Below are positions 4,896 to 22,518 of a stretch of 64,000 bases of DNA, one piece after another. Position 1 is the stretch's first letter; each line of letters begins with the position of its first letter. Made by a program: the position numbers and the translations under genes. Source of the DNA: a virus. The notes under the pieces were generated by a model. That model saw nothing but the letters and a program-made list of their open reading frames with translations. It was not told the origin of the DNA and made no database searches. The stretch is from the IMG/VR virus record IMGVR_UViG_3300027635_000001, positions 1 through 64,000 of that record. One strand, written 5' to 3'.

Positions 4896-5932
4896 GCTGC
4901 TTTCACCTTGATTGTTCGATAGGTTGACGGGTTGACCATGTATCCCTTGCGGTGCGTCGTCGGCGCTTCAATCAGACGGCCATCAGCTAGGCGCCCGCGC
5001 GCGGCGTTGCCTAGCATGTTGATGATTTCCGCATCGAGAGACTTCCGCGCCTTCTCGGCTTCGCTGCCGTTCTTTTCGGTCGCCTTGTATCCGTCTCGCT
5101 TGGCGAGCAGTTCGGATATGCGATTATTACCGCTGAGATCTACTTCGGCGCCGGCTTCGGCCTCGCTATAAATCTGCGCGATCATCCATCCATCACGGTC
5201 GAAATCTGGCGAGTAAGGATCATTCTCGGCAATCCTGCGCCAGAAATCGGCTACGAGCTCGCGCGCCTTGACCATCAACTGAGGATGCAGCGGAACCTCG
5301 ATCAGATAGAAATCGATGTTGAAGTTGGCCACGAATGCGCCGACGTAGGCGAAAGCACAGTCCGACAGCGTTGCGTCGTCTATTGCCTGGATCGCGGCCG
5401 AAAGCGGCGGCACGATCTCGCCGTCCTGTTTCCACTCCCTGTCGAAAACCATCTGCGCCATCGACTTGATTTGAAGCGTGCCCTTTTTACCGGGCCGCGC
5501 AGGGTCCCATAGAAACGTGTCGGGGGTCGACGACATCCTGGCTTGCTGATCGACATAGACGCATCCGCCGCCGGGGACCGGATTTGGCGACACTGTCCAT
5601 GTCGGGCGAAGTAGGCGCATGCACTCGATCGCATCGTCCTCAAAGAGGTTGCCGCGCCCGGTCGGCGGGATGCAAACGCTATTCTCGCGTATCTCGATCT
5701 CTGGAAACTCGCGCTTGGCTAGACCGGACTTCTCAGCAAACAGGGCGTAGGCGCTCTGATGCTTGCTGACGCCGAACAGCGACGGCAATTCGCTCCCGCC
5801 AACAGTCGTCATCTTCCCGGCAAGCCATTCCTCACGAGACGATGGCCTGACGATCTCGATCGCGCGCGTCGGCTTGAGCCCGGCGACGATTCCGGCGGAG
5901 ATGTCGCCCAACTTCTCGAAATTGTCGCGCAT
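4892..5932 (-). CDS. YqaJ-like (lambda Exo-type, PD-(D/E)XK) recombination exonuclease
   Basis: The N-terminal SSREEWLAGKMTTVGGSELPSLFGVSKHQSAYALF matches the YqaJ motif. It lies directly upstream of recT and overlaps it. Confidence 0.7.
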   Translation of the reverse strand: MRDNFEKLGDISAGIVAGLKPTRAIEIVRPSSREEWLAGKMTTVGGSELPSLFGVSKHQSAYALFAEKSGLAKREFPEIEIRENSVCIPPTGRGNLFEDDAIECMRLLRPTWTVSPNPVPGGGCVYVDQQARMSSTPDTFLWDPARPGKKGTLQIKSMAQMVFDREWKQDGEIVPPLSAAIQAIDDATLSDCAFAYVGAFVANFNIDFYLIEVPLHPQLMVKARELVADFWRRIAENDPYSPDFDRDGWMIAQIYSEAEAGAEVDLSGNNRISELLAKRDGYKATEKNGSEAEKARKSLDAEIINMLGNAARGRLADGRLIEAPTTHRKGYMVNPSTYRTIKVKAA

Positions 5933-5936
5933 CTGC

Positions 5937-6209
5937 CTACTCCCCGTCCAATTCGATGAACTGCCGTTCCGGGTCGCTGTCTTCGCCGACGTAGCTGATC
6001 CAGCCGGCGGCGTTGATCGCCTCGCGGATCACCGCATCGGTCGTGTTGAACGCGGTTGCGGCTTGGGCGACGCTGATGCGCACGGCGACTTGGAAGTTCA
6101 TGCCCGACCAAACAGCGAGCGCGGGGCCGAGGTCGCCGATGCTGATGCCGGTTTCGCCGTCTTGTTCTTCTTCCGATGAGAGGAACATTTCGCGTGTGAA
6201 AATAGACAT
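5937..6209 (-). CDS. hypothetical protein (90 aa)
   Basis: ORF in the early-left operon, acidic. No family recognised. Confidence 0.5.
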   Translation of the reverse strand: MSIFTREMFLSSEEEQDGETGISIGDLGPALAVWSGMNFQVAVRISVAQAATAFNTTDAVIREAINAAGWISYVGEDSDPERQFIELDGE

Positions 6210-6517
6210 TATGCCGCCTCACCAGTTTGCGCCTCTCCCCGCGCGCCCTCGACCTCGGAAAAGTCCGGCTCACCTAGGTCCGGTTCTCCAGTCACCATCT
6301 TCCCGCTCGCCAACCGCACCCGCTTGATCCGCGTGGCCACTTCCTCGAAGGCGTCAGCCAAATCCAGATCGGCGCGGGTCAGCGCGGCCTCGACATCCTC
6401 GACCTTCAAGCCGACCATGCGGATGTGCGCGACGCGACGTTCATAGGCGCGGCATTCGGCCTCGGTTGCGTGCAACACGCCGTCGAAGGCCGCGTATTTT
6501 GTGAGAATTTTCATCAT
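6209..6517 (-). CDS. hypothetical protein (102 aa)
   Basis: ORF whose stop overlaps the next start. No family recognised. Confidence 0.5.
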   Translation of the reverse strand: MMKILTKYAAFDGVLHATEAECRAYERRVAHIRMVGLKVEDVEAALTRADLDLADAFEEVATRIKRVRLASGKMVTGEPDLGEPDFSEVEGARGEAQTGEAA

Positions 6518-6521
6518 CGCC

Positions 6522-7673
6522 TCAGTATGTGATCGAAATCGCAGGAATCTTCCGGCTCGCGATCAGCGTAACGGCCAGCGTCGCCGCTTCCTCGACCATG
6601 CCGCCCGCGACCAGTGCATCGCGCGCCTTTCGGTTCACGGCGGCGGCGTGCCGCTTGTTCGCCTCGCGGCGCTCGGCTTCGGCCTTCGCACGGACGGCTT
6701 GTTCGGCTACTCGGCGCTCGGAAGCCGCAGCTGCTTCCGCAATCTCTCGCTTCGCCCGCGCATCGGCTTCGGCCGCGCGTCGCTCGGCCGCAGCTGCTTC
6801 GTCGCGCAACGCCTGCTCGCGGCGAGCGGCAACATCGCGCTCTTGCTGCGCTGCACGCTCGGCGGCCCGCGCGTCGTTCTCGCGCCGCTCACGCTCTTTC
6901 TGGGCGTCCGATTCCGCTTTCAGTCTGGCGCGCTCAGCGGCCTCGGCGGCGATCGTTGCCTCACGTTCCTTTCGCTGGCGCTCGCGCTCCACCGCCGCTG
7001 CGGCTTCCGCCTCTTTCTTGCGGATAGCCTCGCGCTCGGCTTCTGCGGCCCGTAGGCGGGCGTGTTCGGCTTGTTCGGCTTCCTGCTGCTGACGAACAAA
7101 GAGGGCTGCCCTGAGCGAGCGCAGTGCGCCGTCTTTAGCGCGCGCGTAATCGGACTCGAATTCCTCACAAGCGGCCGGGCTGATCCCGATCGCCTCGACG
7201 GCGGCAATCTGGGAGAGGAAGTCTACCGAACTAAAGCCCCCCGGAAGTCCGGCATTCGGAGCGATCGTCATCTCCGTCAAAAGCCTCAACTGGTCTTGGT
7301 GACGATCAGTCCTCGCCTTTTCTGCGACCTCCCACTCCGTCAGCGGCGCGCGGACCTCGGCCGCCCATGCGTCAAGCGTCGTGTTGATCCGGCGCCGGCT
7401 CGCGTCAATCTTGCCGGGGATCAGCTTCGCTTGGGCCGCCAACTCCTTCCCGACTTTCTCAAGCGCGGTCTTGCTACGCACCACCTTGAAAGCGAAGGAT
7501 GCGATTTCGTCGCGACCTTTTTTCGTCTTCACATCTGGGGCAACCCAAGCGTCGATTTTCTCGCGGACTTCGGCGAGGAGCGGGTCTAAGTCTTTGCCGC
7601 CATCTGACGTGAACAGCGCAAGGGCGGTCCCGGGATGCGACGGGATTGTTACGAGTTCGGTTTCCATTACCAT
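6522..7673 (-). CDS. coiled-coil protein with long Ala/Glu/Arg-rich central segment (possibly DUF1351-like)
   Basis: 383-aa ORF with a globular N-terminal part. About 150 aa of AEAEREAIRKKEAEAAAAVERERQRKERE...-type low complexity follow. Confidence 0.6.
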   Translation of the reverse strand: MVMETELVTIPSHPGTALALFTSDGGKDLDPLLAEVREKIDAWVAPDVKTKKGRDEIASFAFKVVRSKTALEKVGKELAAQAKLIPGKIDASRRRINTTLDAWAAEVRAPLTEWEVAEKARTDRHQDQLRLLTEMTIAPNAGLPGGFSSVDFLSQIAAVEAIGISPAACEEFESDYARAKDGALRSLRAALFVRQQQEAEQAEHARLRAAEAEREAIRKKEAEAAAAVERERQRKEREATIAAEAAERARLKAESDAQKERERRENDARAAERAAQQERDVAARREQALRDEAAAAERRAAEADARAKREIAEAAAASERRVAEQAVRAKAEAERREANKRHAAAVNRKARDALVAGGMVEEAATLAVTLIASRKIPAISITY

Positions 7674-8445: not shown

Positions 8446-8732
8446 TTTGAACCGTCCGAAAGAAAATCCTCGTCGCGCGTGGCGACAGGCTGAACGCGCT
8501 CGACCTTCAAGGCGCGTATGAGGCGACCAGCGATAATCGCGTTGTAAGGTCCGTCGCGATTGCACTGGTCGACAACGTCGGCGGCCCGTTCAAGGCCGAA
8601 CTCGTGTCCTAGGGAAAACGCCTCGTCCAAATCGCCTTTGATCGTCTGGAATGTGAGATCGTCGCGCTTCTCCCGAACCAGCGTCAACCACCACTTGCGG
8701 ACAATGTCGCTCAGTCGCATCGAGGGAGTCAT
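8442..8732 (-). CDS. hypothetical protein (96 aa)
   Basis: ORF in the operon. No family recognised. Confidence 0.5.
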   Translation of the reverse strand: MTPSMRLSDIVRKWWLTLVREKRDDLTFQTIKGDLDEAFSLGHEFGLERAADVVDQCNRDGPYNAIIAGRLIRALKVERVQPVATRDEDFLSDGSK

Positions 8733-8926
8733 GCCGTCACCCTCGCCTTCGCCCGCAACTCACGGCGCACCCAGTTCGCGCTTTCCGTCAGCATCGCAAT
8801 ATGCCCCGCGTCGGGAGCGCCGTACGGGATGACGTGCTTGAGCCAATGATCAACCGTTGCAAGGATGTCGTAGGCCGCGGCGTCGAGAGGCGGCGGGGTG
8901 TTCTGTACGAATATTTGTTGTCTCAT
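8729..8926 (-). CDS. hypothetical protein (65 aa)
   Basis: Internal start MRQQIFVQNTPPPLD... The upstream part of the track ORF is rejected on composition. Confidence 0.45.
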   Translation of the reverse strand: MRQQIFVQNTPPPLDAAAYDILATVDHWLKHVIPYGAPDAGHIAMLTESANWVRRELRAKARVTA

Positions 8927-11784: not shown

Positions 11785-11924
11785 GCGCGCGCCCCGCATG
11801 CTTTCCATCATCTGAGCTCGCCATCGCCTTCCCTCCCGGGTTCGATGGCGTGACTGGCGCGGCCGTCCGGGCGACGGTCGTGTCTTTTTCTTATCCAGCC
11901 TGAGTTTCGGTTCCTGCGCGGCCC

Positions 11925-12353: not shown

Positions 12354-12464
12354 GTGCCTCGAGGTAGCCGCAGCGATCGCCCAGCTGGCCTGCTGGATCG
12401 CGCCGTGGATCGCCGACGAGCCGCCGGAAAAGCCGCGCGTGCATACAAAGATTTGGGGGCTGTG

Positions 12465-13004
12465 ATGACGAAACCGCTTCCCCCGGAAATGCGCAAACGC
12501 AGTCCCGACCGCGTCGACTGGAGCGAGTGGCGGCTCGCAATGCTACGCCGCATGTGGCCGGACAGCGGCATCGGCTGCCCTGAAATTGCCCTTGCCATCG
12601 GATGCGGCGCGACCCGGAACGCCATCATTGGCAAAGCTCGTCGGCTAGGACTTGGGCCTAAGCCATTAATCTCAGGCCAGAGCCACCAAGCCAGGGGCGG
12701 CGCGACCAAACGGGCGAAGTCCGAACAGCAGCGCGTCGTGTCGATGCAGGCGCTGGCCGAGAGGCGCAAAGCGATCTCATCCCCGCAAGCTCTCGCCGAG
12801 CACCGCGAGAAGCAAGCCGCCGCAGGGCCAGCCGCCATCGCGGCGGTCGAGCTCGCGCTGATCAATAATCCGCGGTTCGTCGCGCGGGTCGAGAAGCCAG
12901 CGGACCTCTACGCGCACATGAGAAGCGACAAAGGTTATCAGGACGCCTTGGCCGCGCTGTCGCGCGACAGGAAAACGGGAGAAATATTTCATGGGCGAGC
13001 CTAG
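12465..13004 (+). CDS. GcrA-like cell-cycle regulator homologue
   Basis: WSEWRLAMLRRMWPDSGIGCPEIALAIGCGATRNAIIGKARRLGLGPK matches the GcrA N-terminal DNA-binding signature (W..LW..G.S..qIA..LG.vTRNAVIGK.hRLGL). Confidence 0.75.
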   Translation: MTKPLPPEMRKRSPDRVDWSEWRLAMLRRMWPDSGIGCPEIALAIGCGATRNAIIGKARRLGLGPKPLISGQSHQARGGATKRAKSEQQRVVSMQALAERRKAISSPQALAEHREKQAAAGPAAIAAVELALINNPRFVARVEKPADLYAHMRSDKGYQDALAALSRDRKTGEIFHGRA

Positions 13005-13524
13005 GAAAATCCAGCAACCGCGCGCGGGGACGAACGGCTTCGACCCGGACGTGCTGCATGCGCTCGTGGATCGTATCGAAGGCGTAGTCGAAGATCTGCT
13101 CAGCGAGCGCGGCTCTTATATGTCCAAGTGCCGATCCATGCGCGAGGATATCGCCAATATCTACGACGAGGCGAAGGCGCGCGGCATTCCGACGAAGCCG
13201 CTCAAGAAGGCCGTGAAGGCGCGGGAACTGACGCGCAAGATCGAGGCGCTGCGCGTAGATTTCGACCTCATCGAGCGCGAGACTTACGACCAAATCCGCC
13301 ACGCGCTCGGCGATCTAGCGGACACGCCGCTCGGCGAGGCGGCTGCGAAAGGCTCCCCTGGCGCGCCGGATGACGAGCCGGATGTTCGGCCGGGGTTCCT
13401 GAAGGACAAGGATGCCGAGGCTTCGGCGGCCAACGCCGAGGCCTTGAAGGGGATCAAGCCCTTGAAGTCGAAGGGCCCCAAGGTCGGCGGGGACGTCGAG
13501 GGTTCCTATAAGGCCGTCAACTGA
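12991..13524 (+). CDS. GapR/DUF2312-like protein with extended C-terminus
   Basis: LHALVDRIEGVVEDLL...REDIANIYDEAKARGIPTKPLKKAVKAREL resembles the DUF2312 core (IeRiErLeeEk..i..dikevYaEAKgnGfDvK.LrkvV). There is an insertion relative to that core. Confidence 0.5.
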   Translation: MGEPRKIQQPRAGTNGFDPDVLHALVDRIEGVVEDLLSERGSYMSKCRSMREDIANIYDEAKARGIPTKPLKKAVKARELTRKIEALRVDFDLIERETYDQIRHALGDLADTPLGEAAAKGSPGAPDDEPDVRPGFLKDKDAEASAANAEALKGIKPLKSKGPKVGGDVEGSYKAVN

Positions 13525-13525
13525 G

Positions 13526-14431
13526 ATGATTGCCTCTGGCGACAAGTTTGGTCGTTTGACGGCTGTCTCGCCAATAGGCGGGGGCCGATGGTCGTTTGTT
13601 TGCGATTGCGGAACCGCGAAAGGCATCCGCCACAACAAGGTCCGGACCGGACATACGCAAAGCTGCGGATGTCTGAGGCTTGACTCCTTGAAGCGTACAA
13701 ACGCTCTCAGGGCAGTCCCTGATCTTACAGGGCAAAGGTTCGGTCGGCTCGTGGTCACGAAGATGGTCGCGAAGGTAGACAACCACACATATTGGGATTG
13801 CCGCTGCGATTGTGGCGTCGTGACGTGCCCCTCGGCGAACAAGCTGCGAAACGGATCAACCGTTAGCTGTGGATGCTACAAGCGTCACATGCTGGGGCAC
13901 CGAACGCGCGGGATGGCGCATCCTGGCGGTCGGCCGAACTCGGAAGTGCTGACACTTGAGAGATTGAAGCATCTGCTGATCTTAGATGAATCGTTAAATC
14001 TATTTCGGGGGCGGTTTACGCGCGGCGGCCGCCCAGCCGGCGAGATTGCTGGGCATCAGCGAGGGGATGGCTACTGGATCGTCTGCCTAGACCGAAAGAA
14101 ATATGCTGTTCATCGGCTGATTTGGTTCTGGCATCACGGAACGTGGCCAGTTGAATTGGACCATGACGATTTGGATCGCGGCGCCAATGCGATGAACAAT
14201 CTCCGTGAGGCCACGCGTACGTTGAACAACGCCAATCATCCGTGCCGGAGAGACAGCAGGCTCGGCGTGAAGGGAGTTTTCCAAAACAAGGGATGTGATC
14301 GGTTCTATGCAAGGATATCTTGCAGTGGACAAAGGTATTCTCTGGGCGGCTTTGCGACGCGCGAAGAGGCTAACGAAGCGTATTTTCGAAAGGCCAAAGA
14401 ACTATTTGGCGACTTTGCGAGGGCCGCGTGA
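13526..14431 (+). CDS. HNH endonuclease with AP2-type DNA-binding C-terminus and duplicated N-terminal Zn-knuckle modules
   Basis: FGRLTAV...CDCG...SCGC appears twice. Then HRLIWFWHHGTWPVELDHDDLDRGANAMNNLREAT (HNH_3-like), and finally GVKGVFQNKGCDRFYARISCSGQRYSLGGFATREEANEAY (AP2-like). Confidence 0.75.
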   Translation: MIASGDKFGRLTAVSPIGGGRWSFVCDCGTAKGIRHNKVRTGHTQSCGCLRLDSLKRTNALRAVPDLTGQRFGRLVVTKMVAKVDNHTYWDCRCDCGVVTCPSANKLRNGSTVSCGCYKRHMLGHRTRGMAHPGGRPNSEVLTLERLKHLLILDESLNLFRGRFTRGGRPAGEIAGHQRGDGYWIVCLDRKKYAVHRLIWFWHHGTWPVELDHDDLDRGANAMNNLREATRTLNNANHPCRRDSRLGVKGVFQNKGCDRFYARISCSGQRYSLGGFATREEANEAYFRKAKELFGDFARAA

Positions 14432-14967
14432 TCATCATGGCTATCGACCCCGCAACTATTTTAGGATGGGCGCTAGGCGAGCCGGGGACTATCCCTCGCT
14501 CCGGAGCCGTGCGTTTGAAGGCGCCCGACGACGATCGCGACGTCGCGGCGTTCAACGCGATGTGTTTTCTCATCGACACATGGACGCTCGACAAGCCTGA
14601 CTTCGTCTGCGTCGAGCATTTCATGAACCCGGCGGCGCAGAAATCGGCGGACGCGATCATCCTTCAAATCGAGGTTTACGGCGTCATCGTCGCGATGTGC
14701 CGGCGCTATGGCATCCGATACGCGGCGCCGCAGCGGTCGACGGTAGTCACGCATTTCTGTGGGCCCGGCGCGCCGCGTGACCGTGATTCGCTCAAACGCG
14801 CCGTGGTCCAGCGGGCGATCCTGCTCGGCTACATGCCCAAAGGCGTGAGAGACGACAACCGCGCCGACGCGTGCGCGCTGTTCGATTGGGCCTCTGCGCA
14901 CCACGGGCGCACGCCGCCTCGCGAGCTGCGGCTGTTCGGCGAGCGGGCGGGGACGAGATCGGCATGA
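14428..14967 (+). CDS. RuvC-like Holliday junction resolvase
   Basis: IMAIDPATILGWAL..., VCVEHF..., ...NRADACALFDWA fit the RuvC Asp/Glu motif pattern. GTGA overlap with the HNH gene. Confidence 0.72.
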   Translation: MIIMAIDPATILGWALGEPGTIPRSGAVRLKAPDDDRDVAAFNAMCFLIDTWTLDKPDFVCVEHFMNPAAQKSADAIILQIEVYGVIVAMCRRYGIRYAAPQRSTVVTHFCGPGAPRDRDSLKRAVVQRAILLGYMPKGVRDDNRADACALFDWASAHHGRTPPRELRLFGERAGTRSA

Positions 14968-15887
14968 ATGCGCTCGCCAGATACGATGCAGCCCGCACAG
15001 CCCTCGCTGAGGCTCATAGGATTGATGAGGTCAAGGATATTCGCGACAAGGCCATCGCTTTGGAGGCCTACGCTCGGCAGGCAAAAGACACCTCTTTGAT
15101 TCGGCACGCCACCGAAATCAGATTGCGCGCGGAGCGAAGGGCGGGAGAATTGCTGGCCAAGATTCCGAAGGCGAAGGGCGGCCAGCCCTATCAGAATCCT
15201 ACCCCCTCTCGACCGCAAGCAGTAGGCGCTGAGGTCGCAAAGCCAATGACGCTGGCCGAGATGGGCGTGACAGACACGCAATCGGTCAAATGGCAACGCC
15301 TTGCCGCTCTCTCCGAGGACAAGTTCGAGACCCGTGTGGAGCACGCGAAGGCGCGTGTAACGGATATGACGACGAGTTCGCCGAGCTATTCCAAGGCGAT
15401 CTTCACTGGCGAAAACGAGTGGTATACGCCCGCCGAATATGTCGAGAGAGCGCGTGAAGTCCTTGGAACCATTGATCTCGATCCAGCTTCAAACGAAATC
15501 GCTCAGGAATGGATCAAGGCCGTTACGTTTTTCACCATCGCCGATGATGGATTGACGCGAGAATGGTTCGGAAGGGTTTGGCTCAATCCCCCCTATGCTC
15601 GCGCCACGATGGAGCCGTTCGTTGAAAAGCTTCAGTCTGAGTACCTCGCGGGGCGAGTTACAGAGGCTGTATTATTGACCCATAATTACACCGACACGGG
15701 ATGGTTTCACACAGCTGCCATTTCGGCTTCGGCTATTTGTTTGCTTCGCGGTCGCGTCAGGTTCGTGGCTCCGTCTGGCGAGGAGTGCTCCCCAACACAG
15801 GGGCAAGTGTTCTTCTATTTCGGCGCAGATTCGCGACGGTTTCAGGAGTCGTTCTCACAGATCGGCTTGATTGTGAGGCCCGCATGA
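14964..15887 (+). CDS. DNA N6-adenine methyltransferase (phage Dam / PF05869-type)
   Basis: EWYTPAEYVERAREVLGTIDLDPASNEIAQEWIKA...DDGLTREWFGRVWLNPPYARATMEPFVEKL. ATGA overlap with the RuvC-like stop. Confidence 0.88.
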   Translation: MNALARYDAARTALAEAHRIDEVKDIRDKAIALEAYARQAKDTSLIRHATEIRLRAERRAGELLAKIPKAKGGQPYQNPTPSRPQAVGAEVAKPMTLAEMGVTDTQSVKWQRLAALSEDKFETRVEHAKARVTDMTTSSPSYSKAIFTGENEWYTPAEYVERAREVLGTIDLDPASNEIAQEWIKAVTFFTIADDGLTREWFGRVWLNPPYARATMEPFVEKLQSEYLAGRVTEAVLLTHNYTDTGWFHTAAISASAICLLRGRVRFVAPSGEECSPTQGQVFFYFGADSRRFQESFSQIGLIVRPA

Positions 15888-16519
15888 GTTCGCTGCATGA
15901 CCGCGAGGAATTCAAACGCGGCCGGATTGGCGAGAGGATCGTTGCGCTGATCATGCGCAGCTGCGGATATTTCGTAATTCCGTCCTATGACTACGGCGGC
16001 TCTGACGGCAACAAGGCTCCGAAGATGCAGGGGCCTAAGCTGGCGCTTGTCATCCCTGATTTGGACATCGTCAGGGGCGGGAAACGGCACTGGGTCGAGG
16101 TCAAGACGAAGGATCATGCCGACTTCACGCGAATCACGGATCAGTTAGAGCATGGCATCGACCTTCGCCATTTCGAGCACTATCAGCGCGTCGAATCCGA
16201 AAGCGGTTGCGATGTTGTTGTTTCCGTATTCGAGGAATCCACGGGAGACGTGCTGGCGTCAACGCTTCGACGGATAGCGAAGGTTGGGCGCCTGTCTCCC
16301 CGCTTCAACTGCGGACGTGGTGGTTATTTCTGGCCTCGATCCGTGATGACGCAAATTGCTTCGGTGAGCAGGAACGGAGCCGTTTACGATATCTGCATCC
16401 TGGCGAGACTTGCCGCAAATCCTGGCTTCAGGTGGATTCCAATAAGGGAAGATTTTGAGGGCCTGAAATTTCGAGTTACTGATCGCCCACGCGGACAAGC
16501 TTCGCTGGTGGCCTCATGA
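15884..16519 (+). CDS. PD-(D/E)XK-like nuclease-fold protein, function unknown
   Basis: RIGERIVALIMRSCGYFVIP...LVIPDLDIVRGGKRHWVEVKTK fits a D-x(n)-E-x-K core. ATGA overlaps on both sides (Dam-type MTase upstream, C5-MTase downstream). Confidence 0.5.
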   Translation: MSSLHDREEFKRGRIGERIVALIMRSCGYFVIPSYDYGGSDGNKAPKMQGPKLALVIPDLDIVRGGKRHWVEVKTKDHADFTRITDQLEHGIDLRHFEHYQRVESESGCDVVVSVFEESTGDVLASTLRRIAKVGRLSPRFNCGRGGYFWPRSVMTQIASVSRNGAVYDICILARLAANPGFRWIPIREDFEGLKFRVTDRPRGQASLVAS

Positions 16520-17388
16520 CCGCCCTCCCCCGCATCGCCGCGAACCAGCGCCTGGCCGAGGATCGCAGGCCGCTCGCTGTGGACCTTTTCTGCGGCCTCG
16601 GCGGCTGGTCTGAGGGCTTGCTCGCAGAAGGCTGGGACGTCATCGGCTTCGACATCGAGCAGCACGTCTACGGCGAACATCGCTACCCCGCGCAGTTGGT
16701 CATTCAGGACGTACTGACGCTGCACGGATCGCAGTTCGGGGGCGCCAATCTGATTGTTTGCTCGCCGCCGTGTCAGGAATATTCGTACATGGCGATGCCT
16801 TGGTCGCGCGCGAAGGCGAAGGCCGCGGCGATCCGCGCCGACGCGACGGGCAAGGAACTAGAGCGGCTAAATCGTCTGTTCAACGCCTGCTTTCGGCTTC
16901 AACGCGAGGCTTGCGAGGCGGCTGGGCGGCATATTCCCATGGTGGTCGAGAATGTGCGTGGCGCGCAGGAATGGGTCGGCGCTGCGCGCTGGTCGTTCGG
17001 CTCGTTCATGCTTTGGGGCGATGTTCCCGCGCTCATGCCGGCTACGGTCAGGGCGAGCAAGGTTCCGGGATTCCGCTTCGACGGTAGCGGGCGTTCGTTT
17101 CAATCGGCGAGTGTTGCGGAAACCGGGATCAAGGGCGCGGGGCCGTCATGGGACGCCGCCAAGGGCTGCGGCGCCCACGGGATGGCGCGTTGGACCAACC
17201 CCGCCGAAGGCCGCAAAGGCGCAGGCGCAGGCGCAGGCGCAGAATGGTTCGATAAGAACCTATGTCAACTACCGAGCGCATCGCCGCGGCGCAAAGCCGC
17301 CAGCGCCATGATCGCGAAGATACCGGAGCCGCTCGCACGTTGGATCGCCCGTTGTTTCCTGCCGCGCGCATCGGAGGCCGCAGCGTGA
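16516..17388 (+). CDS. DNA (cytosine-5)-methyltransferase
   Basis: Motif I DLFCGLGGWS, motif IV CSPPCQEYS, motif VI MVVENV, in the standard order. Confidence 0.88.
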   Translation: MTALPRIAANQRLAEDRRPLAVDLFCGLGGWSEGLLAEGWDVIGFDIEQHVYGEHRYPAQLVIQDVLTLHGSQFGGANLIVCSPPCQEYSYMAMPWSRAKAKAAAIRADATGKELERLNRLFNACFRLQREACEAAGRHIPMVVENVRGAQEWVGAARWSFGSFMLWGDVPALMPATVRASKVPGFRFDGSGRSFQSASVAETGIKGAGPSWDAAKGCGAHGMARWTNPAEGRKGAGAGAGAEWFDKNLCQLPSASPRRKAASAMIAKIPEPLARWIARCFLPRASEAAA

Positions 17389-17663
17389 CCTACGACACAG
17401 CGGCCAGATCGGAAGCCAAGAAGGCGCAGTGGCGCGACCCCGCCATCAGGGCACGGTGGATCGCAGGCATGCTCGCGTCATGGGACGATCCCATGCGTTT
17501 GGCGCTAGCTCGCAAGGGGTTTCGGTGTGGTCACGCCGATATCGAGGATGACGCTCGGACAGCCCGCGGCGATGGATGCCGCCTTTGCACCCGCGAGCGT
17601 CAGAAGCGATGGCTGCGTCGCATGAAAGCTGCGGGCGTTGCGGGCGGGCGTGGGGAGGGCTGA
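17385..17663 (+). CDS. hypothetical small protein (92 aa, GTG start)
   Basis: GTGA overlap with the C5-MTase stop. Contains ...FRCGH...DGCRLCTRERQKRW (possible Zn site). The upstream part of the track ORF lies inside the MTase and is rejected. Confidence 0.4.
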   Translation: MTYDTAARSEAKKAQWRDPAIRARWIAGMLASWDDPMRLALARKGFRCGHADIEDDARTARGDGCRLCTRERQKRWLRRMKAAGVAGGRGEG

Positions 17664-18752
17664 ATGGGCGCTGTTTCTTCGATAGAATGGACCGAGGCGA
17701 GTTGGACTCCGATCCGCGCGCGCAACAAGGCGACAGGCAAGGTAGGCTGGCATTGCGAACATGTGACTTCTGGATGCGAGCATTGCTATAGCGAGTCGAT
17801 CAACAAGCGCCTCGGAACCGGACTGCCGTTCAAGCCAGGGCATCGCGGCGATATAGAAATTTTCCTCGACGAGACGATGCTGCTCGCGCCGCTGCGCTGG
17901 AAGCGGCCACGACGGATTTTCGTCTGCTCTATGACCGATCTATTCGCTGATTTCGTCTCAGACGAGTGGATCGATCGCGTCTTCGCGGTGATGGCGCTCG
18001 CGCCGCAGCACACTTTTCAGGTGCTCACGAAGCGCTCGGCGAGGATGCGCATCTATATCGATGACGACTGGACCGTCAATCGCGTCGGCGAGCAAATGTT
18101 CGATATCTCTCCACTCGATCGCTCTGCCCTCAATTGGCCGCTCCCGAACGTATGGCTCGGCGTCTCTGCCGAAGACCAGCGCCGCGCCGACGAGCGCGTG
18201 CCCGATCTGCTCGCGACCCCGGCCGCGGTGAGGTTCGTCAGCGCTGAGCCGCTGCTCGGGCCGATAGATTTCCGCGCCTTGGATTTAAAGCACGAAAAGT
18301 GGGTCAATCTGAAACTGGACGCGCTGACGGGCGCGCATTCTGGAATCGTGGCCGCGCCTCCGTACAAACCCGGATTTGAACTTGGCCCGTCGCTTCCCCA
18401 AAAACTTCCAGGTCTTGACTGGATCATAGTTGGTGGGGAGAGCGGACCGGGAGCAAGGCCCATGCATCCGGATTGGGCTGCTTCGATAAGAGATCAGTGC
18501 AGCAACGCATTTTGCCCGTTTTTCTTCAAGCAATGGGGCGCTTGGAAAAACGGCAGCGACTTTGCGCCAGACGCCAAGGCGGTCCTGCGCGACGGGCGCG
18601 TAATGGAGCCGACGCAGGAAGCCATGCGTAGGGCCGATCGCGATTCGCCAGTTCCGCCGCACCGACCGACGATGATGCGACTGGTCGGCAAGAAGGCTGC
18701 TGGTCGGGAGCTAGACGGCCGCACGCATGACGCCATGCCGGTGACGCCATGA
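17664..18752 (+). CDS. DUF5131 / phage Gp37-Gp68 family protein
   Basis: SSIEWTEASWTPIRARN...WHCEHVTSGCEHCYSE...IFVCSMTDLFAD...VLTKR matches the family N-terminus, including its three-Cys cluster. Confidence 0.8.
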   Translation: MGAVSSIEWTEASWTPIRARNKATGKVGWHCEHVTSGCEHCYSESINKRLGTGLPFKPGHRGDIEIFLDETMLLAPLRWKRPRRIFVCSMTDLFADFVSDEWIDRVFAVMALAPQHTFQVLTKRSARMRIYIDDDWTVNRVGEQMFDISPLDRSALNWPLPNVWLGVSAEDQRRADERVPDLLATPAAVRFVSAEPLLGPIDFRALDLKHEKWVNLKLDALTGAHSGIVAAPPYKPGFELGPSLPQKLPGLDWIIVGGESGPGARPMHPDWAASIRDQCSNAFCPFFFKQWGAWKNGSDFAPDAKAVLRDGRVMEPTQEAMRRADRDSPVPPHRPTMMRLVGKKAAGRELDGRTHDAMPVTP

Positions 18753-20200
18753 CCGTCTTCTCGATCGCCGCCGGGCGCGCGCCGGCCGATCCGCGGCCGA
18801 TGCCGGGAAGCGCGGATGCGGAGCAAGCCTTCCTCGGCGCCATGCTGGTGCAGAACGACGTCTACGCCCACGTCGCCGGCTTCCTCGCCGCCGAGCATTT
18901 CAGCGCCGAGATCAACCGCCGCGTCTTCACCATCGCCGCCGAGATGATCGGCTCCGGTCGGCTCGCGAGCCCGATCACGGTCCGCCCATACCTCGGCGAC
19001 CACGACCTCGGCTCCGGCACGACTTGGCCCGCCTATCTCGCGCGCCTCACGGCCGAGGCCGGGCCCCCGATCGCGGCGCGCGACTACGCCATGACGATCC
19101 GCGACCTCGCCGTCCGGCGGTCGATGATTGCTGCGGCGCGCGACCTCGAAGCGCAGGCCTACGACGCGCCGGTGGATATGCGGCCGGCGGAGATCGCGAG
19201 CGGGGCGCTGGATCGGCTCTCCGTGCTCTCCGAAGACCCATCCCAGACCAAGCGCGTCGCGGCTGGCGCCAGCGCGGCGAGGCTGGTCGCCCGGGCGCAA
19301 GAGATCATGTCCGGGGCGGAAGTCGCCAGCGGCGTCTCGACGGGCTTCACTGACCTCGACGATGCGACCGGAGGCTATCGGCCCGGGGCGTTATGGATCG
19401 TCGCCGGACGCCCGGGGATGGGAAAGTCGATCATAAGCGGGACCAGCGCGACGAAGGTTGCGAACAAGGGCAATGGCGTGCTCGTGTTCTCGCTCGAGCT
19501 CGCCGAGGAGGAGTTCGCCGCGCGGCTGCTCGCCGACCTCGCCTATAGCGCGCGGCGCCCGATCGCGTTCTCCCAGATCATGCGCGGCTCCCTCGACGAG
19601 GAGGAGTTGTGGACCGTCAGCGACGCCCAGCGCCGGCTCGAGCGAATGCCGCTGACGGTCGATTATTCTTCGAGGCTGTCTGCCGCGGAAATCAAGGCGC
19701 GGATCCACGTCGAGGGCAAAAGACTTCGAGCGCATGGCAAGCGGCTCGGCGTCGTGTTCGTCGACTATCTCAAGTTCGTCGCGGCGTCTGACAGATACAA
19801 GGGCAATCGGGTTTATGAAGTCGGCGAAATCAGCGCGGCGCTCAAAGCGGCGGCGAAAGACGAGGGCGTGTGCATCGTGCTGCTGGCGCAACTCAATCGG
19901 GCGCTCGAATCGCGAGAGGACAAGCGGCCTGGGCTTTCAGATTTGCGCGAGTCCGGCGACTTGGAGGCTGACGCGGATGTCGTCGCGTTCATCCATCGGG
20001 ATCACTACTATCTCGAAAAGGGCGTCAAGAGCCGATCGCCAGATGACGAGATGACGGTCAAGCTTGAGGAGTCGCGGAATCAGGCGGACCTAATCCTCGG
20101 TAAGAATCGAAGTGGGCCGTGCAAGACGATTCCGTTGTTCTGCAACGTCGGGTGTTCGACGATGGCGACGCGGAGTCAGTATGGGGAGGCGCCCTTCTAA
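18749..20200 (+). CDS. dnaB: replicative DNA helicase DnaB
   Basis: N-terminal DAEQAFLGAMLVQND..., Walker A GRPGMGKS, ...FVDYL..., LAQLNRALESREDKRPGLSDLRESGDLEADADVV. Confidence 0.92.
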   Translation: MTVFSIAAGRAPADPRPMPGSADAEQAFLGAMLVQNDVYAHVAGFLAAEHFSAEINRRVFTIAAEMIGSGRLASPITVRPYLGDHDLGSGTTWPAYLARLTAEAGPPIAARDYAMTIRDLAVRRSMIAAARDLEAQAYDAPVDMRPAEIASGALDRLSVLSEDPSQTKRVAAGASAARLVARAQEIMSGAEVASGVSTGFTDLDDATGGYRPGALWIVAGRPGMGKSIISGTSATKVANKGNGVLVFSLELAEEEFAARLLADLAYSARRPIAFSQIMRGSLDEEELWTVSDAQRRLERMPLTVDYSSRLSAAEIKARIHVEGKRLRAHGKRLGVVFVDYLKFVAASDRYKGNRVYEVGEISAALKAAAKDEGVCIVLLAQLNRALESREDKRPGLSDLRESGDLEADADVVAFIHRDHYYLEKGVKSRSPDDEMTVKLEESRNQADLILGKNRSGPCKTIPLFCNVGCSTMATRSQYGEAPF

Positions 20201-21480
20201 TGGCTCGCATTCGGAGCATCAAGCCGGAATTCTGGACTGACGAGAAGGTCGTTCATCTGCCGTTCGCGGCGCGCCTATTGTTCATAGGGATGTGGAATTT
20301 TGCCGACGACGAGGGGTTTCTCGAAAGCCAACCCGACCGGTTGAGATTGCAGATATTACCGAACGACGACGTCGACGTCGAGCTTTACGTCGACCTCCTA
20401 TGCGCAGCTGGACTGATCGATCGCATAGAACTTTCCGATGATCGCGAAATAATTTCAATCCCGAACTTCGCACGCCACCAAAAAATCTCTCACGTCACCA
20501 AAACCCGCTTTCCGGTAAACGCCGGAAAGAAGCGCATCATCCCTCTCGAAACGAGACGCTCGGTCGCCGTCAAGTACGGATGCAAGCCCGGAGGCGAGAA
20601 GGATGTGGAATGTTATTTCTGCGGAGCGAAGGGAAGCATCTGGTGGCCGACGACGAGAAAGGGGCGCCCATCGTCGTGGGTAGCGTTCTCCGGTGTGGAA
20701 TTGGATCATTTCATTCCGGAAAATACCGGAGGGACAGAAACCAATGAAAATATGGTCTTATCTTGCCGTTATTGCAACCGATCAAGGGGTAGCGGCGACG
20801 CTATCGGCTTTGCGCTCCGGAAAATACCGGAGGCTACAAAGAGCATTCCGGAAAATACCTGCTCAGTGAGCATTCCGGAAAATACCGGAGCGCTCCGGCC
20901 TGAAGGGAAGGGAAGGGAAGGGAAGGGAGAAGAGGATGAAAAGAAAGAATCCACTCTTGCTCATTCCGAATCCTCAGCCGCGCGAGAAGCCTCGACGAAA
21001 GAACGTGAAAAAGACGAAAGCTTGATTTCGAAATGCCGAAACTTGGTCGGCATGGAGCCGTGCAGCCAAGCTGAAGATTTTCACGAACTCGAGAGAATTG
21101 CTAGGGAAAACGGATGGACCGAAGTTGATATCCTCGCGGGGATAGCAACCGCCCTGCGCCGCGGAACCCAGCGCTTCAGCGCTTGGCAGAGTTTTGAGAA
21201 CTGGATCAGGAACGAGGTCAAGACCAGATTGGCGCGCATTCCCCGATCGGCTCAGCCCATCACCAGCGCACCCTCCGACGACCCGGTAATCGACCTTGGC
21301 GCCGTCCGAGACATCCAGTCGAAAATCGTCAACGCCATCCAGAAAATCGGGTGGGCGGGCTATGCCGGATGGGCGGAAACCGAGTTTGGCAGCGTCGAAA
21401 AATTCCGCGCCGCCATTGCCTCCCACGCCCCGCACCTGATGAAATTCTGGCCCGACGAACCGACGAGGGCGGTACGATGA
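20200..21480 (+). CDS. replication-initiator-like protein with central HNH motif and internal iterons
   Basis: The N-terminus MARIRSIKPEFWTDEKVVHLPFAARLLFIGMWNFADDEGF is a type I recall next to phage helicase genes. CYFCG...ELDHFIPENTGG...NMVLSCRYCNRSRG is an HNH. TAATG overlap with dnaB. Confidence 0.6.
   Translation: MARIRSIKPEFWTDEKVVHLPFAARLLFIGMWNFADDEGFLESQPDRLRLQILPNDDVDVELYVDLLCAAGLIDRIELSDDREIISIPNFARHQKISHVTKTRFPVNAGKKRIIPLETRRSVAVKYGCKPGGEKDVECYFCGAKGSIWWPTTRKGRPSSWVAFSGVELDHFIPENTGGTETNENMVLSCRYCNRSRGSGDAIGFALRKIPEATKSIPENTCSVSIPENTGALRPEGKGREGKGEEDEKKESTLAHSESSAAREASTKEREKDESLISKCRNLVGMEPCSQAEDFHELERIARENGWTEVDILAGIATALRRGTQRFSAWQSFENWIRNEVKTRLARIPRSAQPITSAPSDDPVIDLGAVRDIQSKIVNAIQKIGWAGYAGWAETEFGSVEKFRAAIASHAPHLMKFWPDEPTRAVR
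20714..20898 (+). repeat. four 17-bp iterons TTCCGGAAAATACCGGA (plus one partial copy)
   Basis: Copies at 20714-30, 20815-31, 20846-62 (variant ...CCTGC) and 20873-89, with a partial GCGCTCCGG at 20890-98. Each contains a TCCGG-N6-CCGGA dyad. Confidence 0.75.
20902..20950 (+). repeat. polypurine tract with (GAAGG)x5 pentanucleotide repeat
   Basis: GAAGGGAAGGGAAGGGAAGGGAAGGGAGAAGAGGATGAAAAGAAAGAA lies directly 3' of the iterons. Confidence 0.8.
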
Positions 21481-21656: not shown

Positions 21657-21880
21657 CCATTCCCCCCGATCAATCCGAACATCTCCGCAAATACGGCGCA
21701 ATCGACCACGCGCCGGTCCGCAAGCCCAAGCCGCGCGACCGGCTGTTCACCGACGCCGAGGTCGAGGAGATGCGCCAGTTCGAAGCGCTCAAGCTGACGG
21801 GGTATCTCGTCGGGCGCGAGTCTGAACCATGCGCGCCGATCGAGATCACGGCCGCATGCGATTTGGAGAAACTCGCCTGA
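21653..21880 (+). CDS. hypothetical protein (75 aa)
   Basis: MTIPPDQSEHLRKYGAIDHAP... ATGA overlap with the upstream stop. Confidence 0.45.
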   Translation: MTIPPDQSEHLRKYGAIDHAPVRKPKPRDRLFTDAEVEEMRQFEALKLTGYLVGRESEPCAPIEITAACDLEKLA

Positions 21881-22518
21881 TGCTCGCCACCCTCGACGCC
21901 GGCGGCCCCCGCGTCTCAGTCGACCGCACCGCGGCGCGGCTGTGGTACACGCTCAGCGTGATCCCGCAATCGCAAGCCCGCGTCTGCCAGCGCGCCCGCG
22001 AGCTCGGGATCGAAACCTACGCGCCGATGAGCCGCACGCCGCCAATGGTGCGCAAGTTCGGGCGCAAGCGCGTCGCCGAGGCTCAAGTGCGGCCGTTGAT
22101 GCCGGGGTATGTGTTCGTGTCGCTGCCGACCGTCGGCGCGAGGTTCGATGTGTTCGATCCCGCCAGTAGCGGCCCGGAGGCCATACGGGGCTCGCTGGGC
22201 TTCATCTGCGCGCGGCAGGGCGAATGGGACGAGCGGAGCCCGATGGCCGTCAGTGAGGCTGTAATCGCCAGCATGAGGCTACGTGAAGCGTCGGGAGAAT
22301 TCGACTTAACCGGCAAAACCGACCACGGCCGCCAATTCGTCGCCAAATGGGTAAAACGCGGCGTGCGGGTCCAAGTCGTGGAAAACTGCCCGTTCGCATA
22401 TTTTTTCGGCAGGATCGAGAGAGTCAGGAGCGCCAAGCTGATCACGGTCGCACTCACGCTTTTCGGCCGCGAAACGATGATGGACATGCCGTTGGATTTC
22501 ATCCGATGGGCTGGATAG
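21880..22518 (+). CDS. NusG-like (NGN + KOW) transcription antitermination factor
   Basis: LWYTLSVIPQSQARVCQRARELGIETYAPM...RPLMPGYVFVSL is NGN-like. The C-terminal GVRVQVVENCPFAYFFGRIERV...LFGRETMMDMPLDFI is KOW-like. It is the last gene before the late operon. Confidence 0.72.
   Translation: MLATLDAGGPRVSVDRTAARLWYTLSVIPQSQARVCQRARELGIETYAPMSRTPPMVRKFGRKRVAEAQVRPLMPGYVFVSLPTVGARFDVFDPASSGPEAIRGSLGFICARQGEWDERSPMAVSEAVIASMRLREASGEFDLTGKTDHGRQFVAKWVKRGVRVQVVENCPFAYFFGRIERVRSAKLITVALTLFGRETMMDMPLDFIRWAG

Follow-up and report, generated by a model that had tools for sequence, protein, structure and literature searches.

The 64,000 nt of viral DNA analyzed here (positions 1 to 64,000 of the IMG/VR record IMGVR_UViG_3300027635_000001, in the following called the window) carry two overlapping genes, coding for a Dam-type N6-adenine methyltransferase (MTase) and for a predicted small nuclease with a PD-(D/E)XK fold, which together look like a previously unannotated phage restriction-modification (R-M)-like pair. 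In a first-pass annotation these two genes had been joined with the next three, coding for a C5-cytosine MTase, a small cysteine-containing protein and a DUF5131 protein, into one DNA-modification cassette. In that proposal the nuclease, termed MID here, was the middle protein between the two MTases. Judged by the related loci, it is very probable that the functional unit is the pair of adenine MTase and MID and not the five-gene set.

Linkage of MID to adenine methyltransferase genes

MID loci were collected from viral contigs, species genomes, metagenome contigs and contigs with an exact protein match. The resulting 128 loci contain 94 distinct MID cores, six of which lie at a contig edge, leaving 88 informative ones. 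In 87 of these an N6-adenine MTase gene ends at the start of MID, 46 times of the Dam type (PF05869) and 41 times of the MT-A70 type (PF05063), and a single distinct core is found without an MTase (locus L220). The partner MTases carry the motif NPPY (PF05869) or DPPW (PF05063), and the MT-A70 enzymes are sometimes fused to a ParB_N domain. Among 90 distinct MTase-MID pairs, the two genes overlap in 84 (33 of them as NTGA), five pairs lie no more than 20 nt apart and one is degenerate. Remote members of the family, with 26-33% identity to the MID of the window, also follow MT-A70 genes.

The core lacking an MTase is located on a 92-kb contig of a metagenome-assembled genome (MAG; JADHED010000161.1). 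This MID is truncated and has lost the N-terminal helix with the catalytic glutamate. At a second locus (L036, CAVXHJ010000019.1) the dam gene is frameshifted and MID is truncated as well. Both lie on long chromosomal MAG contigs and look like decaying prophage remnants.

In the records of isolated phages, Dam-type homologues were found in 797 and MT-A70 homologues in 496, MID in none. A tblastn search with MID gave no match in 50,697 phage records or in 72,556 plasmids, and when 185,579 species genomes were scanned with a pattern, four matches appeared, all of them in MAGs, a number which is limited by the pattern. The linkage from the nuclease to the MTase is obligate, overlapping and one-way, and this genomic behavior of the MID family indicates a dependence on adenine methylation. 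It contradicts the part of an earlier suggestion, stacked anti-restriction methylases next to an unrelated nuclease, which concerned the nuclease, as no other gene is linked so tightly to an adenine MTase.

The two MTase types are intermixed on the MID tree. In loci L233-L236, MID is 86-88% identical on the amino acid level to that of the window and is located 3′ of an MTase with ParB_N and MT-A70 domains. On the nucleotide level, these loci resemble the window exactly from the MID start codon onward. They represent a recent event in which a non-orthologous MTase took the place of the original one, while the nuclease next to it stayed nearly the same. Near-identical MIDs with MTases of two families are a clean experimental handle.

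The surroundings of the pair are varied. With rough picking of open reading frames (ORFs), the 28 genes 3′ of the pair fall into 27 distinct clusters and the 25 genes 5′ of the MTase into 25, and the Pfam contexts include DUF1064 with a primase-helicase, RusA with a second MTase, Prim-Pol and terminase. Other resolvases are encoded 5′ of the pair, a RuvC-like one in the window and RusA in locus L120. In the latter, the genes for an N6_N4 MTase and RusA (5884-7106) are located directly 5′ of the Dam-MID pair, an order which mirrors the RuvC-like/Dam/MID order of the window with a non-homologous resolvase. In locus L119, a DUF1064 gene (8495-8818) lies directly 3′ of MID, and YbcO is encoded there, too.

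The two proteins of the pair

For the MID of the window, no match was found in Pfam (E < 0.01), PHROG, NCBIfam or PADLOC. A word-indexed search yielded 83 homologues. An exhaustive profile search extended the family to 1524 cluster representatives (clusters at 50% identity), of which 1001 have E ≤ 1e-10. None of these four collections contains a model for this sizeable family of predicted nucleases with its 1000 or more 50%-identity clusters. In the literature and in curated families, no description was found of the MID family or of the coupling of an Hjc-like nuclease with MTases of the Dam or MT-A70 type; REBASE was outside the scope of this search.

The AlphaFold2 model of MID, built from 42 sequences, reached a predicted local distance difference test score (pLDDT) of 85.3 and a predicted template modeling (TM) score of 0.83. 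The top Foldseek matches are archaeal Hjc resolvases (2wcw, E 3e-6, target TM 0.73), followed in the PDB by the SPARDA nuclease domain, the SSV nuclease D212 and RecU. The viral fold matches are uncharacterized phage proteins and annotated resolvases. The earlier call of a PD-(D/E)XK-like protein is confirmed by this confident model and its Hjc-like fold. The constellation E17...P58-D59...E72-V-K74 is wholly invariant in the close set of homologues, and P58, D59, E72 and K74 are invariant among 104 diverse members. Based on the model, MID can confidently be predicted to be an Hjc-like nuclease with an intact active site.

MID is set apart from Hjc by a conserved insertion, VIPSYDYxGxDGxKAPK (aa 31-47), and by a variable, beta-rich C-terminal extension. 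The Pfam profile of Hjc (PF01870) misses the MID of the window and matches one of the 104 family members (E 0.002), and a profile search against PDB sequences reached Hjc ST1444 at E 0.2 only.

A distant MID subfamily (alignment A3; P0131, locus L123) has a C-terminal cysteine cluster following the nuclease core. C137, C139 and C148 are invariant in this subfamily and C142 is found in at least 90% of the members, which suggests a zinc-ribbon DNA-binding add-on. The sampled A3 member is likewise located 3′ of an MT-A70 MTase gene.

The adenine MTase of the window matches PF05869 (E 5.7e-15) and phrog_111 (E 7.7e-39) with a catalytic domain at about aa 150-305, in which the NPPY motif occupies aa 208-211 (15585-15596). 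The earlier assignment to the Dam type holds on the basis of this profile match and motif. With respect to the curated cut-offs, the protein scores above that of Pfam (55.8 vs. 28.1 bits) and below that of the NCBIfam equivalog TIGR01712 (49.8 vs. 97 bits), so that it belongs to PF05869 and not to the equivalog, and the GATC specificity is not transferable.

The N-terminal ca. 145 amino acids of this MTase (14964-15398) correspond to phrog_33995, a mobile domain. It is joined to MT-A70 catalytic domains in loci L014-L016. Furthermore, it was found in ORFs located 0.4-2.3 kb 3′ of DUF5131 genes (L132-L136, L142, L145), and these copies are partly the N-termini of Dam-like MTases (L132, L145).

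The T1 and HP1 Dam enzymes, which are members of PF05869, are GATC-specific. For the MT-A70 type, GATC-specific MTases were described for the Serratia phage BZS1 (p32) and for Tn1549 (PMC7556043). Since the characterized phage members of both families methylate GATC, this site can be guessed as the target of the window MTase, at 30-40% sequence identity to characterized enzymes. A shared GATC target would also account for the mutual substitution of the two MTase families. In the phage genome, GATC occurs above and GANTC below the expectation from base composition, which, like the palindrome counts, does not discriminate between the hypotheses.

Alphaproteobacterial phages of the phiLM21 group carry orphan GANTC-specific adenine MTases beside their replication modules (Decewicz et al., 2017; PMC5537653). 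The window shares with this group the phage architecture and a small NPPY-type N6-methyladenine (m6A) MTase at the same position, 5′ of DnaB and the replication genes. It differs from the group in the coupled nuclease gene and in the MTase itself, for which no similarity to p027 of phiLM21 was detectable. A GANTC specificity carried over from p027 was therefore rejected.

Possible functions of the pair

The best-supported mechanism is that of a phage R-M-like module, a minimal Type II system of poison and antidote, and we give it about an even chance of being correct. It is inferred from the obligate one-way linkage, from the decay of the nuclease without the MTase and from the fact that the same operons encode further resolvases. 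The MTase would be made first from the coupled genes and would mark the phage DNA with m6A, while MID would cleave DNA which does not carry this mark. Candidate targets are host DNA, following induction or infection, and the DNA of competing elements. Where the MTase is lost, selection would then favor the loss of MID as well. An R-M-like module had already been among the earlier readings; it is retained for the Dam-type MTase and the nuclease and not for the five genes.

The pair resembles Type II R-M systems of viruses and prophages in several respects. An MTase with its catalytic motifs is adjacent to a small PD-(D/E)XK nuclease whose predicted active site is intact, and the nuclease depends on the MTase: it is not found intact without one, it decays after MTase loss, and the MTase often occurs alone. 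Viral examples of such systems are the chlorovirus pairs, which degrade host DNA, and prophage-borne systems. The interchangeability of MTase families beside a conserved nuclease is a further shared trait, as the related nucleases EcoRI and MunI have MTases of different classes. In contrast to known Type II systems, the nuclease belongs to an unannotated family whose fold is nearest to Hjc and not to any known restriction enzyme. It also differs in the strict order of MTase before nuclease with overlapping genes and no C-protein, and in its location inside phage early or replication operons, almost exclusively on uncultured viral contigs.

A comparable logic is found in phage T4, which marks its own DNA with hydroxymethylcytosine and directs the endonucleases II and IV against unmarked DNA. 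In the pair, however, the mark would be ordinary m6A, set after replication by a single MTase, and the nuclease is unrelated.

Several observations weigh against an R-M-like function. The best folds for MID are those of junction resolvases, whereas the restriction enzymes HincII and NhoI were matched only at E > 0.01. The repeated MTase swaps require that both MTase families protect from one nuclease, which is an assumption. The identity of the MTases to characterized enzymes does not exceed about 40%, and that of the window is unlike the GANTC-specific MTase of phiLM21. Finally, MID is nearly confined to uncultured viral contigs and was found on no plasmid and, in the pattern-limited scan, only four times in species genomes, whereas typical R-M systems are widespread in cellular genomes.

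If the pair is restriction-like, phages of hosts lacking Dam would possess a compact weapon of two genes within the replication operon, with the antidote made first. In this case MID would represent a new enzyme family with a possible use as reagent, and some "orphan" phage MTases would be explained.

The fold itself leads to another explanation, in which MID is a structure-specific nuclease acting on Holliday junctions or branches to clear replication and recombination intermediates before packaging. The place of MID next to the MTase would then come from a "DNA maturation" slot which both occupy in phage genomes, and not from a dependence of poison on antidote. The top fold matches (archaeal Hjc, RecU and viral proteins annotated as Holliday junction resolvases) point in this direction, as does the location of the pairs in replication and recombination modules with DnaB, primase-helicases, DEAD helicases and, in locus L006, terminase. 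Likewise, phage ParB-MTase-terminase loci were described with a predicted role of DNA modification in packaging (Iyer et al.; PMC4738411). MID shares with Hjc and RecU (PF01870, PF03838) the fold (target TM about 0.7), the core size and the E...PD...ExK constellation. It differs from Hjc in its sequence (about 14% identity), to which the Hjc hidden Markov model is blind, and in the conserved 25-residue insertion and C-terminal extension, which Hjc lacks. A further difference is the obligate linkage of MID to an adenine MTase. Moreover, the window and locus L120 already encode a RuvC-like protein or RusA immediately 5′ of the pair, and locus L119 encodes DUF1064 and YbcO proteins. A resolvase function gives no reason for the MTase linkage, for the overlap of the genes or for the decay of MID without the MTase. 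We regard it as unlikely.

Alternatively, MID may read m6A, so that phage DNA would be cut or nicked at marked sites in a methylation-dependent or hemimethylation-directed manner, similar to DpnI or MutH. Possible roles would be the start of replication or recombination, the timing of packaging or strand discrimination. The strict linkage to an adenine MTase suits any mark-dependent function, and the same phage encodes a relative of GcrA, which in Caulobacter responds to m6A. Precedents are the cleavage of P1 pac, which depends on Dam methylation, and MutH, a PD-(D/E)XK nuclease steered by the methylation state of GATC. Cleaving its own marked genome would, however, be self-destructive for the phage unless tightly restricted. 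In the single compact nuclease domain of MID no m6A-reader domain (winged helix, SRA-like, RAMA) was detected, a MutS or MutL partner was not seen among the annotated ORFs of the window and of the neighboring loci, and toxicity explains the decay of MID without an MTase more simply. This function seems to have a small chance of being correct.

A slightly smaller chance still is given to a further idea, in which MID would not be a classical restriction enzyme. It would act on branches or junctions under the control of methylation, as an Hjc-type resolvase licensed or vetoed by the m6A of its partner. If true, the phage could distinguish its own replicating DNA from that of the host or a competitor during the processing of intermediates, which would be a new coupling of an epigenetic self-mark to DNA-structure processing.

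It is very improbable that MID repairs damage caused by its partner MTase. The model for this is the dcm-vsr locus of Escherichia coli, in which the MTase gene overlaps at its 3′ end with that of a small PD-(D/E)XK-like endonuclease and the two are co-translated, as in the pair described here. The partner of MID is, however, an adenine MTase, and N6-methyladenine yields no mutagenic deamination mismatch comparable to that of 5-methylcytosine to thymine, so that the mismatch-repair rationale is missing. The one cytosine MTase gene of the window is located 3′ of MID and is not a conserved neighbor. Finally, MID has no similarity to Vsr (summarized in PMC3424549).

Neighboring genes and the five-gene set

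The five ORFs of the presumed cassette were all found on the plus strand, in frame and at the coordinates given by the first-pass annotation (Table 1), and its junctions are exact; the sequence reads ATGA at 14964, 15884, 16516 and 18749, GTGA at 17385 and TGA/ATG at 17663/17664. They do not mark a cassette. All genes from 12991 to 20200 are joined by overlaps or by gaps not exceeding 1 nt, a chain that extends far past the five genes, and the start/stop overlaps were rejected as cassette boundary for this reason. Within the region no promoter- or terminator-like sites were found beyond chance level.

In the closest relatives (L001-L003 and a 61-kb contig), Dam and MID are 96% identical to those of the window and are followed by unrelated genes and a DEAD-box helicase gene, with no C5-like MTase, small protein, DUF5131 or DnaB gene at that position. 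Locus L232 has a MID of 95% and a small protein of 85-90% identity, together with a different C5-like MTase (34% identity), two additional small genes and a 96-aa ORF which replaces DUF5131 ahead of the DnaB junction. In locus L033, the DnaB gene directly follows MID. Starting from the other genes, 80 viral loci of the C5 family (50-82% identity) contain MID or the small gene in no case, a Dam-type MTase in two and DUF5131 within 5 kb in seven, and the five-gene arrangement is found in none of 19 loci of close DUF5131 relatives. The DUF5131 genes of the cultured phages phi3LM21 and AmM-1 lie amid unrelated genes, and homologues of the small gene (L130, L131) are located among other small early genes, with no adjoining C5-like MTase or DUF5131 gene. 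None of the relatives examined has the five-gene order, not even those with 95-96% identity. Lack of conservation of the gene order in any relative had itself been named as one of the points which would refute the cassette, and the result speaks against it.

To judge by the divergent gene content in the relatives, the interval between MID and DnaB is a mosaic one, which takes up accessory genes. Those for the C5-like MTase, the small protein and DUF5131 lie outside the unit and can each be exchanged independently of the others, and it would be wrong to regard the locus as a modification pathway of five genes. The five genes are neighbors in a long, packed early (replication) operon of a temperate phage of alphaproteobacterial type and do not form one system.

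The least probable of all readings is that the five genes cooperate, either in a double-methylation R-M system or in a hypermodification pathway with DUF5131 as radical S-adenosylmethionine (SAM) enzyme; their contiguity and overlapping junctions in the window, the DUF5131 motif and fold likeness described below, and adenine MTases within a few kb of several DUF5131 loci agree with it, whereas the comparative genomics given above largely refutes it and no hallmark hypermodification enzyme was found among the annotated ORFs of the window. The multi-step hypermodification pathway suggested earlier has no support. The co-occurrence of its components is not conserved among the relatives.

The C5-like protein contains the motifs I (FCGLGG), IV (PPCQ) and VI (ENV), which agrees with the earlier assignment as a C5-MTase. 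The profile support is weak and limited to the N-terminal part, with PF00145 matching aa 22-92 only (E 5.7e-5, 23.1 bits at a cut-off of 22). The PDB match is also N-terminal only, and the C-terminal half is divergent. In the viral collection 132 relatives were found, which are widespread free-standing phage MTases. The C5-like gene can be assigned as an independent orphan phage MTase.

The small protein is encoded by a genuine conserved ORF. A pattern scan of viral contigs gave no relatives, whereas a protein search gave six homologues with 67-99% identity, always located in phage early regions. The cysteines and the histidine of C48-x-H50...C65-x2-C68 are invariant, and the protein is probably zinc-binding.

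The DUF5131 protein matches PF07505 with E 7e-85 over profile positions 2-243 of 243. At least 8000 relatives were found, all at E ≤ 1e-10, and the nearest named ones belong to Hyphomicrobiales (Bosea, Mesorhizobium, Methylobacterium, Bradyrhizobium). The cluster Cys31-x6-Cys38-x2-Cys41 is conserved without exception in the 22 relatives compared, and Cys279 is also invariant. DUF5131 is listed by RadicalSAM.org as a subgroup of the radical-SAM superfamily (PMC9477430). The motif has the form Cx6Cx2C instead of the canonical CX3CX2C, and with a confident AlphaFold2 model (pLDDT 86.5), Foldseek gave no significant PDB match. The sole recurring weak fold match is spore photoproduct lyase, a radical-SAM repair enzyme (E 0.02-0.03, TM about 0.3). 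The earlier description as a DUF5131 protein with a radical-SAM-like three-cysteine cluster thus stands with regard to the family and the invariant cysteines, while the canonical motif and a significant match to the barrel are missing.

In PADLOC, DUF5131 matches the B genes of two candidate systems, PDC-M41B (E 6e-68) and PDC-M30B (E 3e-65). The partner components PDC-M30A, PDC-M41A and TcmP had no match among the six proteins scanned, i.e., the products of the five genes and the RuvC-like protein. A functional study of DUF5131, Gp37/Gp68, TcmP, PDC-M30 or PDC-M41 was not found in the literature.

Table 1. Positions of the MTase-MID pair, its predicted catalytic residues and the neighboring features of the early operon in the window.
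Feature	Position	Strand	Remark	Basis
N6-adenine MTase, Dam-type (PF05869)	14964..15887	+	first gene of the conserved pair	Pfam and PHROG match
MID, predicted Hjc-like PD-(D/E)XK nuclease, 211 aa	15884..16519	+	second gene of the pair	AlphaFold2/Foldseek
MID E17, predicted catalytic residue	15932-15934			
MID D59, predicted catalytic residue	16058-16060			
MID E72, predicted catalytic residue	16097-16099			
MID K74, predicted catalytic residue	16103-16105			
C5-cytosine-MTase-like protein	16516..17388	+	outside the conserved unit	motifs I, IV, VI
Small protein, 92 aa, GTG start	17385..17663	+	outside the conserved unit	C-x-H...C-x2-C
DUF5131 protein (phage Gp37/Gp68)	17664..18752	+	independent accessory gene	PF07505
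RuvC-like Holliday junction resolvase	14428..14967	+	5′ flank	phrog_159, E 7.5e-15
DnaB-like replicative helicase	18749..20200	+	3′ flank	PF03796, E 4.8e-68
GcrA-like protein	12354-13004		early operon, 5′ of the adenine MTase	PF07750, E 8e-10
GapR-like DNA-binding protein	12991-13524		early operon, 5′ of the adenine MTase	PF10073, E 7e-6
Homing-endonuclease-like gene	13526-14431		between GapR-like and RuvC-like genes	HNH_3 and AP2
Replication-initiator-like gene	20200-21480		3′ of DnaB	HNH domain
NusG-like gene	21829-22518		last gene of the early operon	
Strong terminator-like hairpin	11856-11884		3′ of the first early ORF	12-bp stem and T-run

The window represents a temperate phage with a phiLM21-like layout, which carries genes for an integrase, RecT, a RecE-like exonuclease and a repressor. 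Its early operon is directed rightward in the order GcrA-like, GapR-like, HNH-AP2, RuvC-like, the five genes, DnaB, initiator with HNH domain and NusG-like, and the terminase and portal genes come after it. In a DNA-level search of isolated phages with this region, the similarity was limited to the DUF5131 gene; the phage therefore has no close cultured relative.

GcrA and GapR, the homologues of two products of the early operon, are cell-cycle and nucleoid factors of Caulobacter, of which GcrA acts on promoters marked with m6A. Related phages repeatedly carry GcrA-like genes, too. Finally, the hairpin near the start of the early genes and the NusG-like gene hint at a control by antitermination, as annotated in phiLM21.

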